From a phage, in sequence record NC_135732.1: a stretch of 64,000 nucleotides of DNA; one strand, written 5' to 3'. Shown one piece after another: positions 25,129 through 33,392 of the stretch. Position numbers and translations under genes: made by a program. Below the pieces are notes generated by a model. It did not search any database. It saw only the letters and a list, made by a program, of their open reading frames with translations, and was not told where the DNA came from. Position 1 is the stretch's first letter, and the number at the start of each line of letters is the position of its first letter.

Positions 25129-26401
25129 GAGGAGACAGCAGACTCCATTCATCACATTAAGTTTAGGACTGGATACCTCGGTCTTTGGTAGAATGATTAC
25201 CAAAAATTACTTGAAAGTCCACAAAATGGGTCTTGGTGAAGAACGGATCACACCTGTGTTCCCTAAAGTGCTGTTCTTCCTAGAAGAGGGTGTCAACATG
25301 AACCCTGGAGATCCTAACTATGATTTGAAACGATTAGCTCTGGAATGCTGTGCAGAACGTATCTATCCTGACTTCGTATCTGTACCACTAAATAGGAAAG
25401 TGACAGGCTCGACAGATGGCAAAGTAACGAGCATGGGTTGCCGGAGTTTTCTTAGCAAATACAATGACTTGGAAACAGGCGAGGAGAAATACCTTGGCAG
25501 ATTTAACTTAGGCGTTGTTAGCCTTAACCTGCCAATGATTGCGGCAAAAGCTAAGACGGAAGGTGTTGATTTCTTTGCAGTTCTTGACGAATACTTGGAT
25601 CTTGCATACGAGGCTCACCTTGTAAGGGTTAACCGTCTAAAAGGAACAAAGGCAGGGCAGAACCCCATCATGTGGTGTGAAGGCGCTCTTGCTCGCCTGG
25701 ATCCTGAAGAAAGTATTGATAAACTCTTCTATGATGGGTACGCTTCCATCAGCATTGGGTATATTGGTGTGTATGAAACCTGTCAGATTTTGGGCAGAGA
25801 AGGTGACAAGGCTTTAGCTCTTGGAATCCTTCAGCACATGAGAGATGCTTGTGAGCGGTACAAGAAGGAAAGTAGACTAGCATTTAGCTTGTACGGCACT
25901 CCTTCTGAGAGTCTATGCTATAAAGCTGCAACCTGTCTGGATCGTGAATATCCTGAAGTGTTGAAGCACGAGCATGAATATCTCACCAACAGTTTCCATC
26001 AGCCAGTATGGATAAATAGCTCTCCTTTTGATAAGTGGGAGTATGAGGAAGGTTTTGCTATGATCTCCTCTGGTGGCAACATCGGATACGTAGAAACACC
26101 TAACCTGAAAAACAACCTGGATGCTTTAGAGGCTCTTGTTGACTTCGGGTATAAACACATTATGTATTTTGGTATTAACCAACCTGTGGATAAATGTCTC
26201 AAGTGTGGTTTCTCTGGTGAGTTCAGTGCAACAGCTAAAGGCTTTGTATGCCCAGAGTGTGGAAACCATGAAGAGGGAACGATCAGTGTAATTCGACGTG
26301 TGTCTGGATACCTTTCCAGTCCTAACTCCCGTCCTTACAATAAAGGTAAGCAAGCGGAAGTTATCGAGCGAGTTAAGCACTACGGAAGTTGTGGTTGCTG
26401 A
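25129..26401 (+). CDS. nrdD: anaerobic ribonucleotide reductase NrdD, exon 2
   Basis: DPNYDLKRLALECC block, C-terminal zinc ribbon CLKCG...CPECG and glycyl-radical motif RRVSGYL. Confidence 0.8.
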
Positions 26402-26464
26402 TTCTTGACAAAAGCCACAAGGATGTGGCATATTATTGACACACAGTGAGCTAGGAGGTGTAGT

Positions 26465-26581
26465 ATGTCATCAGGTATTTATAAAATTTGCAAGTGCGGC
26501 TGTAGTTGTAATCTTCGTTGGTGCAAGGCACTAGACGATTTTATTTGGCATTGCCCTAAATGTGATGCGGAGTATCTATGA
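26465..26581 (+). CDS. small Cys-rich (zinc-ribbon-like) protein, 38 aa
   Basis: Not in ORF track (<60 aa). GGAGGTG RBS; CxC..C...HCPKC pattern; ATGA overlap with nrdG start. Confidence 0.45.
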   Translation: MSSGIYKICKCGCSCNLRWCKALDDFIWHCPKCDAEYL

Positions 26582-27612: not shown

Positions 27613-28401
27613 ATGGGTCGAGCTAAAGAAACAAAACGCATGCGTGATGAAGCTAGAGAGGCTCGCAAATCTGATCGCCTGCGTAAGGCTGCTGAGAAAT
27701 TTGCTGACGAAAGAGAGCACACCGCTCCAGCTCTCCGACCAATGAATAAGAAGCAGCAAAAGTATCTTGATTATCTAGGGTCACGTAAGATTATTATTGT
27801 AAACGGTGTGTTTGGATCCGGTAAGACATTCATGGCATCTGCATATGCAGGTGATCTTCTGCGTAAGAACGAGATTGATAAGATTATTGTTGCACGTCCT
27901 TACGTTCAGACAGGAAAGACTTCAGGATTTAAACCTGGAAATGCAATGCAGAAACTGTGGCCCTATCTTCGAAGCATGATGGACACGATTTGTCGTCGTG
28001 TTGGCAAAGGTGCTTTTGCCGCAATGCTGGGAGACGGTCAGAACAGCCGTATCGAGATTTGTGAAGTTGAAAGCATTCGTGGTCGTAGTTTCGATGAGCG
28101 ATGCTTTGTCCTGATTGACGAGGCACAGCAAACTAACCCTGAAGAAATGTTGTCAATTATCACAAGGATCTCTGATCAAGCCACCCTTGTAATTATGGGT
28201 GATAATAGCCAACGTGACATCCCTGGTAAATCTGGCCTTGCATGGGTGACGGATTTCTTTACTCGTCATCCAGATCCTGAGGTTGGAATGATCAGCTTTG
28301 ATAGTCCAGACGATGTCGTTCGTTCTGGGTTGGGCCGTCAGATCGCACTCAATCTTATTGAGGATCGTGCAAATCATATTTGGACCCCTGTTTCCGAGTA
28401 A
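27613..28401 (+). CDS. phoH: PhoH-like ATPase
   Basis: Walker A GVFGSGKTF and Walker B CFVLIDEAQ; RBS AAAGGAG. Confidence 0.85.
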   Translation: MGRAKETKRMRDEAREARKSDRLRKAAEKFADEREHTAPALRPMNKKQQKYLDYLGSRKIIIVNGVFGSGKTFMASAYAGDLLRKNEIDKIIVARPYVQTGKTSGFKPGNAMQKLWPYLRSMMDTICRRVGKGAFAAMLGDGQNSRIEICEVESIRGRSFDERCFVLIDEAQQTNPEEMLSIITRISDQATLVIMGDNSQRDIPGKSGLAWVTDFFTRHPDPEVGMISFDSPDDVVRSGLGRQIALNLIEDRANHIWTPVSE

Positions 28402-28445
28402 TACAGAAGGGTGGTTATTCCACCCTTAAATATCTAAAACAGTTG

Positions 28446-28474
28446 TTGACAAATAGGTAAGCTTTAGATATTAT
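28446..28474 (+). promoter_or_regulatory. sigma70-like promoter
   Basis: TTGACA, 17-bp spacer, TATTAT. Confidence 0.65.
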
Positions 28475-28502
28475 TATCGGACAAAACAGAGAGAAGGACA
28501 GT

Positions 28503-28814
28503 ATGGCTACAATACAAGAGAAACTGAATAAAATATACTGCCTGTTTGTCTATAACGGCGAGACAATTTTGGCAAATAAAGGATCCAAGAATGTGTGGAT
28601 CAAGGACAGCGGTGGTAACATAATCAACTTAGCGTTGCTACGTGAGCGCCGACACAGATTCTTTATCGAGTCTCGAATTATTGAAAGCAGCATCTGCTAC
28701 AGAACAGGCGATAAAGTAATTGTTGACAATGATACGTGGTATGTGGTAGACTGGCAATCATTGAGTTGTGATGCTTCTGACAATCGTAAGTATTCCATAG
28801 TAATTGCTAAATAA
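28503..28814 (+). CDS. hypothetical protein
   Basis: 103-aa ORF after promoter. Confidence 0.5.
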   Translation: MATIQEKLNKIYCLFVYNGETILANKGSKNVWIKDSGGNIINLALLRERRHRFFIESRIIESSICYRTGDKVIVDNDTWYVVDWQSLSCDASDNRKYSIVIAK

Positions 28815-28874
28815 AGGTAAATGTGAATCAGGTTTAAATAAATAGCTTTCAACTTCCAATATTAAGGATTTCTC

Positions 28875-29924
28875 ATGAATTTAACACCTCGCAGCACCAT
28901 GGTACACGGCATGAAAGAAAAACAGAACGGTTTCGAACCTATGAGTAATAAAATGTTTGGTATGCCGGGTGGTATTATGGAAACATACAGCTACCCAACA
29001 CCTGTTGTTGACCACGTTCTTTATATCGACGATTTGGAGGACCTGCAGGATCATATGTCTCGTCTGCAGACGATCCGTATGGCTCAGCCGGAAGAAAGCA
29101 TTCGTGTGATCATCAATAGCCCTGGGGGTTGCGTGCACATTGCAATGGCTTATCTACAGGCATTCCGCGAGTCTCAGGCAAGCGTTGTTGCACATGCTGA
29201 AGGGATGTGCTGCTCTGCTGGAACAATCCTATGGCTGGGTTGCAAAGAACGCACTGTGGCTCCGGACACAGAGTTTATGTTCCACTACTATCAAGGCGGC
29301 ACTTATGGCAATGGTGTGAACATGAATACTCAGGTCAGCTACTGGAAAAAACGTTTCGAACGCCTGATCGAAAAATACTACGGTTGGGTGCTGACAGAAG
29401 ATGAGATCGCATCCATCACAGCGGGTGGCGAAGTGTGGTTGGACGGAGAGGAGCTGGCAGCTCGAACTGGAGCTATCATTCTGGATGAAGGCAACATACA
29501 ACGCATCCAGAACGGACAAAAACCTAAAAAGCTTTTGGCAAAAGGTGATGAAGAAGGTGTGCTAGGTGAAGCAGGTCTTCCGGAGATTCACCAGTGCACC
29601 TCTTTAGATGAGCTAGTTCATGCTGTTGAATCTGCAAAAGCGGGTGGTTCGAAAGGTGATGTTCACACTGTGTTCCTGAACCTGCAGATGGAAAGTGGTG
29701 AGACCGTTAAGATTGCCTTAGGCGAGATTACCTCAGAAGATCTGCAGCGATTCTCTGTCGTTGAACTTCAAGACATTCTGTCCCAATTGAAGACAACCCT
29801 GAACGGCGGTGAAGAGGTTAAGGTAAAAGATAAGACTCGCAAGCGTCTGGTGGACAATATTATTAAAACAGCAAAAGAGCTCAATGAAAAAATCCTGGGT
29901 GCAGGAATTGTCGAAGAAGCTTAA
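28875..29924 (+). CDS. ClpP-like serine protease with ~170-aa C-terminal extension
   Basis: ClpP core INSPGG...GMCCSAGT (Ser)...FMFHYYQ (His). Confidence 0.7.
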   Translation: MNLTPRSTMVHGMKEKQNGFEPMSNKMFGMPGGIMETYSYPTPVVDHVLYIDDLEDLQDHMSRLQTIRMAQPEESIRVIINSPGGCVHIAMAYLQAFRESQASVVAHAEGMCCSAGTILWLGCKERTVAPDTEFMFHYYQGGTYGNGVNMNTQVSYWKKRFERLIEKYYGWVLTEDEIASITAGGEVWLDGEELAARTGAIILDEGNIQRIQNGQKPKKLLAKGDEEGVLGEAGLPEIHQCTSLDELVHAVESAKAGGSKGDVHTVFLNLQMESGETVKIALGEITSEDLQRFSVVELQDILSQLKTTLNGGEEVKVKDKTRKRLVDNIIKTAKELNEKILGAGIVEEA

Positions 29925-29936
29925 ACATTAATTCTA

Positions 29937-29960
29937 AAGCCCTCTTCGGAGGGCTTTTAT
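29937..29960 (+). terminator. rho-independent terminator
   Basis: AGCCCTC-ttcg-GAGGGCT followed by TTTT. Confidence 0.65.
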
Positions 29961-29975
29961 GATCTGGAGATTTGC

Positions 29976-30509
29976 ATGACTTGTGCTCGAAAACCTGATG
30001 AACAACGTAACGCCTACGATGAGTATGTGACACCGGAGTGGTGTGCAGAAGGGCTGTATGACCTTATTCCGTTCCCAGAAGACTGGACCTACTTAGAGCC
30101 TTGCAGGAATAGTGCCTCAGGTGTGTTCTACTCCCGTATGCCGTTAGGATCTGCATGGGGAGAAATCCAAGAAGGTGTTGACTATCTGAATACAGAATAC
30201 AACCATGTTGACTGTATTATCACCAACCCACCATACAGTTTGGCTCGTGAGTTTGTAGACAAGGCGTTGAAAGATGCTGACGTAGTTATTATGCTTTTGC
30301 GTCTTAATTTTCTGGAAAGCAAAGCCAGATTTGAATGGTGGCTTGATAATGCACCTACCACTGTGATCACAATATCTAAGCGTCCATCTTTTCAATCAAA
30401 TGGCAGAACTGACGGGCAAGCATATGCATATTTTGTGTGGGATAAGAAAAACCGTTTAGGCTTGCCGCCATTTATGTGGTTGGCACCACCAGAGGTAGAC
30501 CTGAAATGA
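29976..30509 (+). CDS. small phage-type DNA N6-adenine methyltransferase (Dam-like)
   Basis: Motifs YVTPEW and ITNPPYS in a ~177-aa protein. Confidence 0.65.
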   Translation: MTCARKPDEQRNAYDEYVTPEWCAEGLYDLIPFPEDWTYLEPCRNSASGVFYSRMPLGSAWGEIQEGVDYLNTEYNHVDCIITNPPYSLAREFVDKALKDADVVIMLLRLNFLESKARFEWWLDNAPTTVITISKRPSFQSNGRTDGQAYAYFVWDKKNRLGLPPFMWLAPPEVDLK

Positions 30510-30790
30510 AAATGAGTGCTAAGGACAAATTACACCAGTTAGCGCTAAAACGTCCTGTAACGCTCCCTGACGAGCTTAACTCCATTTATGATGCGATTGT
30601 AGGGGAGATACAAAATAAAGCGTTAGCAGGCTTTCTGGGGTGCGGATTTTCGATAAATCTACCCTCGCATCTCTCAGATTACTTCCCGCACATTGTTGGA
30701 GATTTAAGGGCAGGAGGTCTGCAGGTAGATGTTGTTGGCATCTCCCCAGAGAAAAATAATACGGTTGCCTACTTGACAGTAACCTGGTAG
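30506..30790 (+). CDS. hypothetical protein
   Basis: ATGA overlap with the MTase stop. Confidence 0.45.
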   Translation: MKMSAKDKLHQLALKRPVTLPDELNSIYDAIVGEIQNKALAGFLGCGFSINLPSHLSDYFPHIVGDLRAGGLQVDVVGISPEKNNTVAYLTVTW

Positions 30791-30826
30791 TTGTGTATTG
30801 TTGTTTTCAACAAGAGGGGGTCATTT

Positions 30827-31066
30827 ATGTACAAGTCATTTTCAATCTACTCAAGACAGGCGAAACACTACACAGAGATCCTGATCACTCAGAAAAAATC
30901 TGTGGAAGGTGAGTGGGAATATCACCATAAAATGTTGCGTCCAGACTGGGTTTTTGATAGACTTATTGCTATGATCCCTCTCGGAGAAGTATACCCTCTG
31001 ACAGCCCATCGCGATGCTTGGGATTTAATTGATTACATAGATTCATTTAAGGAGCCTAGATTATGA
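30827..31066 (+). CDS. hypothetical protein
   Basis: Start ATG 30827 after AGAGGGGG RBS. Confidence 0.45.
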   Translation: MYKSFSIYSRQAKHYTEILITQKKSVEGEWEYHHKMLRPDWVFDRLIAMIPLGEVYPLTAHRDAWDLIDYIDSFKEPRL

Positions 31067-32739: not shown

Positions 32740-32925
32740 ATGGTAAAAAATAAATCTTTAGAGCAGGCTGAAAACCTTCTCCACGAGCTGGTAAAGGAGT
32801 GGAAAGTTGAATACTCAGATTTTAATGCACGAGAGGGTGAAGATTATTGGCCTACGGAGCGCTCAGAGGGCGAATGGTATCAAGATTTTATAGAGTGGTT
32901 ATATCAGACGTGCGATGAGGGGTGA
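32740..32925 (+). CDS. hypothetical protein
   Basis: Start ATG 32740 after AAAGGAGA RBS. Confidence 0.4.
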   Translation: MVKNKSLEQAENLLHELVKEWKVEYSDFNAREGEDYWPTERSEGEWYQDFIEWLYQTCDEG

Positions 32926-33392
32926 CGATGTTTGTTAAATATGTAAAAACGTGCCTCAACAGTCTTGGCAGAGAGCATTGGTACACCTTGCTTGAAAAAG
33001 GGGAAATTTTAACAAAATCTGGAAAGATAACTTTGATACCTCTTGATAGTAAAGGTAAAGACCCGTCACGACTTGTTATAGATGATTACGTTACAGGTGT
33101 GACGTTCGAGGTCTCTGTGGAGAGGTTAATACGCAGAGCTGGCGGCCCTTATGACCGAAGAGAGTATGTTTTCGATTCCGTTACAGAGATGGGGGAGCAT
33201 CCGTCTTTAATGTTCAGGATGGTAATCAGAGATATGAGGTCATCTATAGATAGGATCGTAAAGGACATTAAGGAACCTTTTAGAGTAAAAGTTAAGAAGT
33301 TTTTCGATTCTAAGATTAACATACTCGCCGTTGCACTAGGTGTAGTTCAACTTCTGTTAATTTTGCACTATTTTGAACTACTATTTAAGTAG
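32922..33392 (+). CDS. hypothetical protein, C-terminal TM helix
   Basis: 156-aa ORF. Confidence 0.5.
   Translation: MTMFVKYVKTCLNSLGREHWYTLLEKGEILTKSGKITLIPLDSKGKDPSRLVIDDYVTGVTFEVSVERLIRRAGGPYDRREYVFDSVTEMGEHPSLMFRMVIRDMRSSIDRIVKDIKEPFRVKVKKFFDSKINILAVALGVVQLLLILHYFELLFK

Follow-up and report, generated by a model that had tools for sequence, protein, structure and literature searches.

The gene at 28875..29924 (+) of the 64,000-nucleotide stretch of phage DNA analysed here (NC_135732.1; hereafter the window) encodes a ClpP-like protein that we regard, on balance, as a catalytically competent serine peptidase of ClpP fold, non-structural and independent of any ATPase, from the rV5/ICP1-like virulent myophage supergroup. 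The same genomes also encode an XkdF/S78 prohead protease, making this a second, distinct protease, and one that is probably not a head-maturation enzyme. The gene and its family are already known, being catalogued in databases and in the 2013 rV5 paper. What is added here is the recognition of a second protease beside the XkdF-type enzyme, its failure at both curated thresholds (for bona fide ClpP and for the named head-maturation subfamily), the absence of ATPase-docking features and an orphan C-terminal domain.

Gene, transcription unit and neighbourhood

In the list of open reading frames of the window, the gene is an ATG-initiated frame of 349 codons occupying exactly 28875..29924 (+), with an AAGGA ribosome-binding site 7-11 nt 5' of the ATG. 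The window belongs to Vequintavirus, the rV5-like myophages of E. coli. Over a 3-kb stretch around the gene, phage nomo is 99.8% identical and about 100 further records are at least 95% identical, while the ClpP-like protein of phage APECc02 is 100% identical to the 349-aa product of the window. The counterpart in the type phage rV5 is ORF122 / rv5_gp117 (349 aa, 38.5 kDa), annotated as 'ClpP (ATP-dependent) protease subunit'; the family is PHROG 5410. Nineteen GenBank records named 'Campylobacter phage', with Campylobacter jejuni given as the host, match positions 28000-31000 with an identity of at least 90-95%, which suggests mis-assigned hosts or contaminating coliphages.

Four parts of the protein can be delimited. 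An N-terminal tail (residues 1-44; 28875..29006, +) was set from pLDDT, conservation and the start of the alignments, and is followed by the ClpP-fold catalytic core (residues 45-208; 29007..29498, +). Alignment and pLDDT define a variable linker (residues 209-262; 29499..29660, +), after which comes a conserved C-terminal domain private to the family (residues 263-345; 29661..29909, +). The sequence-only reading of a ClpP-like serine protease in a metabolic region was borne out by the profile match, the fold, the invariant Ser and His and the neighbouring genes. It had also described a C-terminal extension of ~170 aa; the extension is real, but its length is about 141 aa, as the ClpP fold ends near residue 208.

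Upstream lie a gene for a PhoH-like ATPase (262 aa; 27613..28401, +), identified from the reading frame list and the PhoH-like annotation in relatives, and a small 103-aa ORF (28503..28814, +) equivalent to rV5 ORF121 (phrog_5456). A consensus scan placed a predicted sigma70-type promoter-like sequence, TTGACA-17-TATTAT (11/12 consensus; 28446..28474, +), in the gap between PhoH and ORF121. A terminator-like hairpin, GCCCTC-TTCG-GAGGGC followed by TTTTAT (29939..29961, +), lies 14 nt past the stop codon of the ClpP-like gene; the stricter T-run criterion of the scan did not flag it. These elements correspond to 'P121' and 't122', both predicted in Table S4 of the rV5 paper, and together they bracket ORF121 and ORF122 as one predicted transcription unit. 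A perfect 9-bp hairpin, GAAGGGTGG-TTAT-TCCACCCTT (28404..28431, +), follows the PhoH stop codon just upstream of the promoter. It lacks a T-run and may act between the PhoH and ORF121/ClpP-like units as a weak terminator or as a site of RNA processing.

The rV5 paper limits its proposed late-promoter motif to structural genes. Near the ClpP-like gene the only match to this motif carries one mismatch and lies inside ORF121, and the window-wide count is barely above chance. In ICP1, the long ClpP-like protein gp211 is classed as 'Middle-late' together with PhoH (gp208) and gp205-210, and expression of the capsid genes peaks late. By this reckoning the protein would be made in the replication (middle) phase by the host RNA polymerase; for rV5-like phages this timing is inferred, because the transcript classes come from ICP1.

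The long ClpP-like gene is found within a recurring gene order, namely NrdA, NrdB, glutaredoxin, optionally an endolysin, PhoH, one to four variable ORFs and the protease, often with a DNA methyltransferase gene next. This arrangement was found in Vequintavirus, Seunavirus (EC152), Certrevirus (CR8), ICP1 and two divergent metagenomic lineages, and the PhoH and Clp protease genes adjoin in Alteromonas phage V22. At the position of ORF121, Seunavirus and Certrevirus carry a phrog_7224 member and ICP1 carries a phrog_8141 member, families unrelated to phrog_5456. A conserved small partner encoded upstream of the protease was considered and rejected, because the ORFs that precede it after PhoH belong to unrelated PHROGs in the different genera and lineages. 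PADLOC matched neither the protease nor ORF121 to a defence system, and for PhoH it gave only weak helicase-type matches. Elsewhere in this block, rV5 has three extra small ORFs between NrdD and NrdG (26401..26578 of the window against 87773..88342 of rV5), one of them annotated 'putative minor capsid protein'. Since all three are absent from the window and from its relative EduardKellenberger, this part of the anaerobic RNR operon is a small indel hotspot.

Family, active site and flanking regions

Pfam PF00574 (CLP_protease) matches residues 59-168 with 47.6 bits against a cutoff of 20.2 (E = 2.3e-12) and is present in 26 of 26 homologs; the protein has a ClpP-type three-dimensional fold. 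The long-form profile PHROG 5410, labelled 'ATP-dependent protease', aligns residues 24-345 with profile positions 4-322 of 323 (E = 7.7e-155). The bona fide ClpP equivalog model TIGR00493, however, has a cutoff of 308.6 and gives 33.2 bits, and the remaining curated ClpP models likewise stay far under their own cutoffs. NF045542, the model for ClpP-related head-maturation proteases, gives 60.3 bits (2e-16) and does not reach its cutoff of 120 either, and NF045540 (protease-MCP fusion) matches at 8e-14. After the protein's own PHROGs, the best profiles are the head-maturation PHROGs 1684 (77 bits), 94, 2976 and 133. Cellular ClpP profiles score 33-48 bits, under the 60 bits of NF045542 and the 77 bits of PHROG 1684. 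Judged from these profile scores, the head-protease branch of phages is somewhat closer to the clade than cellular ClpP is, and at curated cutoffs the protein is neither a bona fide ClpP nor a member of the named head-maturation subfamily.

The core is also matched by PHROG 1827 (E = 1e-39), which comprises short phage ClpP-like proteins of about 180-245 aa. These share a related core, an invariant Ser and His and a location among DNA/nucleotide-metabolism or early genes; they are without a conserved C-terminal domain and without PhoH linkage. No match to Peptidase_S49 (Pfam) was obtained at E <= 1. The S49 peptidases, including SppA, and the lambda gpC-type enzymes use a Ser-Lys dyad, in contrast to the invariant Ser-His arrangement of the phage ClpP-like protein. 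Between the S14, S49 and prohead protease families, which the sequence-only reading had left side by side, the protein thus shows an S14-type fold and a Ser-His arrangement, and it forms a clade of its own.

An alignment of 16 long-form homologs (39-69% identity) was used to assess the active site. Ser114 of the CSAGT motif (29214-29216, +) and His137 of the MFH motif (29283-29285, +) are invariant in all 16, and remain so in a 12-sequence alignment with E. coli ClpP and four unrelated phage lineages. The position of ClpP Asp171 is occupied by Glu in three of the long-form proteins (Glu186 in the window; 29430-29432, +) and by Gln in the other 13; ICP1 gp211 retains Asp at this third triad position, unlike the window protein. 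This conservation leads us to infer a catalytically competent serine peptidase, and the Gln found in most relatives could reduce or alter catalysis. It is therefore highly improbable, in our estimate, that the ClpP fold serves structure or binding here in a protein devoid of catalytic activity: the replacement of the triad Asp by Gln in 13/16 relatives would fit such a role, but Gln or Glu is still able to orient the His, and without catalysis it would be difficult to account for the invariance of Ser114, His137 and the GxxCSAG and MFH motifs over deep divergence.

Identity to E. coli ClpP is about 22%. Helix B of the phage protein is five residues shorter, Asp171 is replaced as described, and E. 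coli ClpP has neither the 44-aa N-terminal tail nor the 141-aa C-terminal extension. Alignments to E. coli ClpP begin at residue 40, equivalent to residue 34 of the E. coli precursor. The tail is predicted to be disordered (residues 1-43 have pLDDT <50), is unrelated in sequence to the axial pore loops and helix A of ClpP and holds no counterpart of them. It does carry a conserved motif, N25...FGMPGG...Y40-P41, which across homologs reads N-x-[FM]-[FG]-[MFYL]-x-P-G ... Y-P (residues 25-41). The hydrophobic-Gly-hydrophobic tripeptide within it is superficially like the IGF/IGL loops of Clp ATPases, possibly by chance.

The C-terminal extension consists of the linker, with pLDDT 33-61 and variable among long-form homologs, and the conserved domain. 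A Vequintavirus-specific insertion in the linker includes one helix (residues 244-256). In the domain, F293, E297 and R322 are invariant; modelled alone, it forms a beta-hairpin and three helices (pLDDT 81.6, pTM 0.70). Only six proteins reached E <= 0.001 when 1.84 billion representatives were searched with a profile of the domain. Three of them are long ClpP-like proteins, two are short members or fragments of the family, and one is a weak match. A scaffold-like identity was rejected, there being no similarity to the scaffold of the phage (hhalign probability <1%). ICP1 gp211, described as a 'ClpP ATP-dependent protease subunit', has a core 36% identical to that of the window protein and likewise lies downstream of NrdAB and PhoH. 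Its C-terminal extension is also about 140 aa and has no detectable similarity to that of the window protein (hhalign probability <1%). The domain is an orphan, private to the family. It may be SAP-like, the SAP / HeH / Rho_N helix-extended-helix motif being the candidate match.

A second protease beside the head-maturation enzyme

The head module was located in phage EduardKellenberger, which is 98% identical to the window. It occupies 0.7-6.8 kb of that genome, the ClpP-like gene lies at 101.0-102.1 kb, and the two are separated by about 32 kb around the genome. The module runs terminase, portal, a 139-aa 'prohead protease', scaffold, decoration protein and major capsid protein. This 139-aa protein is a Peptidase_S78_2/XkdF enzyme (Pfam 65 bits against a cutoff of 24) and matches PHROG 3017, 'head maturation protease'. 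In rV5-like GenBank records the XkdF/S78-type prohead protease is often annotated 'DNA methyltransferase', 'DNA-binding protein' or 'hypothetical protein'. For the enzyme of the relative (L002:3957-4376, outside the window) the best PHROG is phrog_1530, whose label 'DNA methyltransferase' looks like an annotation error spread from fusion proteins.

ICP1 has a homolog of the XkdF-type protease with 40% identity, annotated as a capsid protease; the ICP1 RNA-seq paper assigns it to the late capsid cluster gp122-126 as its predicted protease. The long ClpP-like protein of ICP1, gp211 (326 aa), is encoded elsewhere in the genome. As rV5-like phages and ICP1 each have both proteases, two deeply diverged lineages retain the pair.

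The sequence-only reading was right that no capsid genes adjoin the ClpP-like gene: the portal and capsid module is about 32 kb away in the relative, and no head genes were found beside the ClpP-like gene in the roughly ten genomic contexts examined. We disfavour its suggestion that a prohead protease is encoded here, outside the head module, given the XkdF/Peptidase_S78_2 protease between portal and scaffold. The same guess fits poorly with a location in a sigma70-type unit, not behind the late-promoter motif, and with an ICP1 counterpart transcribed with PhoH and nucleotide-metabolism genes, not with the late capsid cluster.

Prohead proteases usually exit the capsid. The 19 proteins in the MS table of the rV5 virion include no 349-aa / 38.5-kDa locus and no peptide of the ClpP-like protein, an absence that also speaks against a prohead protease and is weak evidence for the reason just given. 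Map position alone is not decisive, because an abundant virion protein comes from the same block: according to the MS data of the rV5 paper, ORF133 is among the predominant virion proteins although it is encoded in the non-structural block. Its counterpart in the window is a 156-aa protein with a hydrophobic C-terminal helix (32922..33392, +; 'virion structural protein', phrog_7821). An identity of the ClpP-like protein with the predominant rV5 virion protein gp133 was rejected, as gp133 is ORF133 / rv5_gp128, a protein of 151 aa encoded ~3 kb downstream.

A capsid role could nevertheless take another form. The ClpP-like protein might be a second capsid-associated protease, a relic of or co-opted from a ClpP-type prohead protease-scaffold fusion, which aids the XkdF protease on internal or minor head proteins and which the C-terminal domain would bring into procapsids. 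ClpP-related head-maturation proteases are likewise phage-encoded ClpP-fold serine proteases that need no ATPase and often bear C-terminal extensions. The head-maturation families NF045542 and NF045540 and PHROGs 1684, 94, 2976 and 133 are the best curated matches. Protease, linker and helical C-terminal module together resemble a protease-scaffold fusion, an arrangement known from lambda C/Nu3-type genes. The same block includes, 3 kb further downstream, the gene of the virion protein ORF133, and a 'Middle-late' timing as in ICP1 overlaps assembly, so that the protein would be present while heads form. We nonetheless consider this role unlikely. The NF045542 score is half of the cutoff (60 against 120), and, unlike head-maturation proteases, the ClpP-like protein is encoded, and would be expressed, with metabolism genes. 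In every lineage examined, a complete head module supplies a protease and a scaffold of its own, and in none of the about ten contexts is the gene near it. Finally, the C-terminal domain is unlike the scaffold of the phage and the protein was not detected in rV5 virions.

ATPase docking, proposed mode of action and significance

In the ClpAP cryo-EM paper, the IGL-loop pocket of E. coli ClpP is formed by L48, F49, A52 and F82 of one protomer and L23, Y60, Y62, I90, M92, F112, L114 and L189 of its neighbour. We mapped these residues onto the phage protein by sequence alignment, the equivalents of L189 and R192 by ungapped extrapolation only. In the profile alignment to E. coli ClpP, L48, F49 and A52 are lost in the five-residue deletion of helix B. 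The replacements Y60 to R77, F82 to E99, I90 to H107, M92 to E109 and F112 to T127 are each found in 16/16 family members, and L114 is replaced by Ala or Ser. In short phage ClpP-like proteins the equivalents of the pocket residues are polar as well.

Because the hydrophobic IGF/IGL pocket is swapped for invariant polar residues, canonical docking of ClpX or ClpA is, as far as the alignment allows, very unlikely. The name 'ATP-dependent protease' used in databases probably misdescribes the protein, having been taken over from the fold only, and the label 'ATP-dependent Clp protease subunit' would mislead, since the ATPase-docking features are absent. The invariance of R77, E99, H107, E109 and T127 (29103..29255) suggests a new conserved role for this surface, and these residues may form a polar site for a partner or a metal. 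A Keio screen with the V5-like phage LL12 reported LPS genes only as required host factors and never mentions Clp, a result that agrees, as weak evidence, with independence from host Clp ATPases.

The non-structural peptidase that we favour would work as follows. The monomer model contains the handle strand and helix of ClpP (residues about 138-169), and with this handle retained the protein would probably assemble into a ring-shaped chamber. It would act without a Clp ATPase, given that the N-terminal gating loops and the hydrophobic IGF/IGL pocket are both missing, and its cytoplasmic substrates would be peptides or loosely folded proteins of host or phage. The C-terminal domain tethered to it may select a substrate or partner, or gate access to the chamber. 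Literature searches returned no functional study of the protein, its orthologs or any non-structural phage ClpP-like protein.

Two further alternatives were weighed. In the first, already raised by the sequence-only reading, it would interfere with host Clp, either by forming mixed, altered rings with host ClpP or by plugging the docking pockets with its FGM/FGF/FGY motif. The handle region and the ring-forming core are indeed kept, and the conserved [FM]-G-[MFYL] in the disordered tail superficially resembles the ClpP-binding IGF/IGL tripeptide. Such a likeness is short and common by chance, however, and about 22% identity to E. coli ClpP together with the helix B deletion makes mixed rings unlikely. 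On the pocket mapping the protein should itself be unable to dock ClpX/ClpA canonically, a pure inhibitor would not need an intact, invariant active site, and the LL12 screen found no host Clp dependence. Interference with host Clp is accordingly something we rate as improbable.

In the second, the protein would be the proteolytic half of a phage-specific ATP-dependent protease, with a phage unfoldase seated on the polar apical cluster or the C-terminal domain and the PhoH-like ATPase as the candidate. In its favour, every long-form context has PhoH 1-4 genes upstream of the protease, the two genes adjoin in V22, PhoH and gp211 share an expression class in ICP1, and the invariant R77/E99/H107/E109 surface, where the docking site used to be, implies that some interaction has been conserved. 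PhoH proteins, on the other hand, resemble SF1-helicase-type P-loop ATPases, not ring AAA+ unfoldases (the matches obtained being weak and of helicase type only). The intervening genes vary by lineage, and the predicted promoter separates PhoH from ORF121 and the protease. In KVP40-like, Pakpunavirus, T5-like and Barbavirus phages, the short ClpP-like genes lie among DNA/nucleotide-metabolism genes and not beside PhoH. We therefore rejected PhoH linkage as a general rule, since it holds in the rV5/ICP1/V22 supergroup and fails for the short genes. This makes inherited gene order, which explains the linkage equally well, the simpler explanation, and the linkage is then not evidence of a functional pair. 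We place little credence in a phage-specific ATP-dependent protease driven by PhoH or another phage ATPase.

A more specific version of the non-structural peptidase can be put forward as a tentative proposal that we ourselves hold doubtful. Here, the ClpP-fold protease of rV5/ICP1-like phages would be an ATPase-independent effector of host takeover or anti-defence, neither capsid enzyme nor Clp partner, whose polar apical site and possibly SAP-like C-terminal domain direct it in the replication phase to specific host proteins, perhaps nucleoid, defence or stress-response factors.

The main outcome is a correction to the idea of the ClpP-like gene as a head protease, leaving a catalogued gene with a plausible putative role. 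It seems never to have been asked why many large virulent phages maintain, next to genes of nucleotide metabolism, a second protease that has a ClpP fold and is not a capsid enzyme. Among the carriers are the Vibrio cholerae phage ICP1, phages of the KVP40-like, T5-like and Pakpunavirus groups, and the rV5-like phages, which serve in O157 typing and therapy. Should specific host or phage proteins prove to be degraded, the protease would represent a new kind of host-takeover or regulatory activity.
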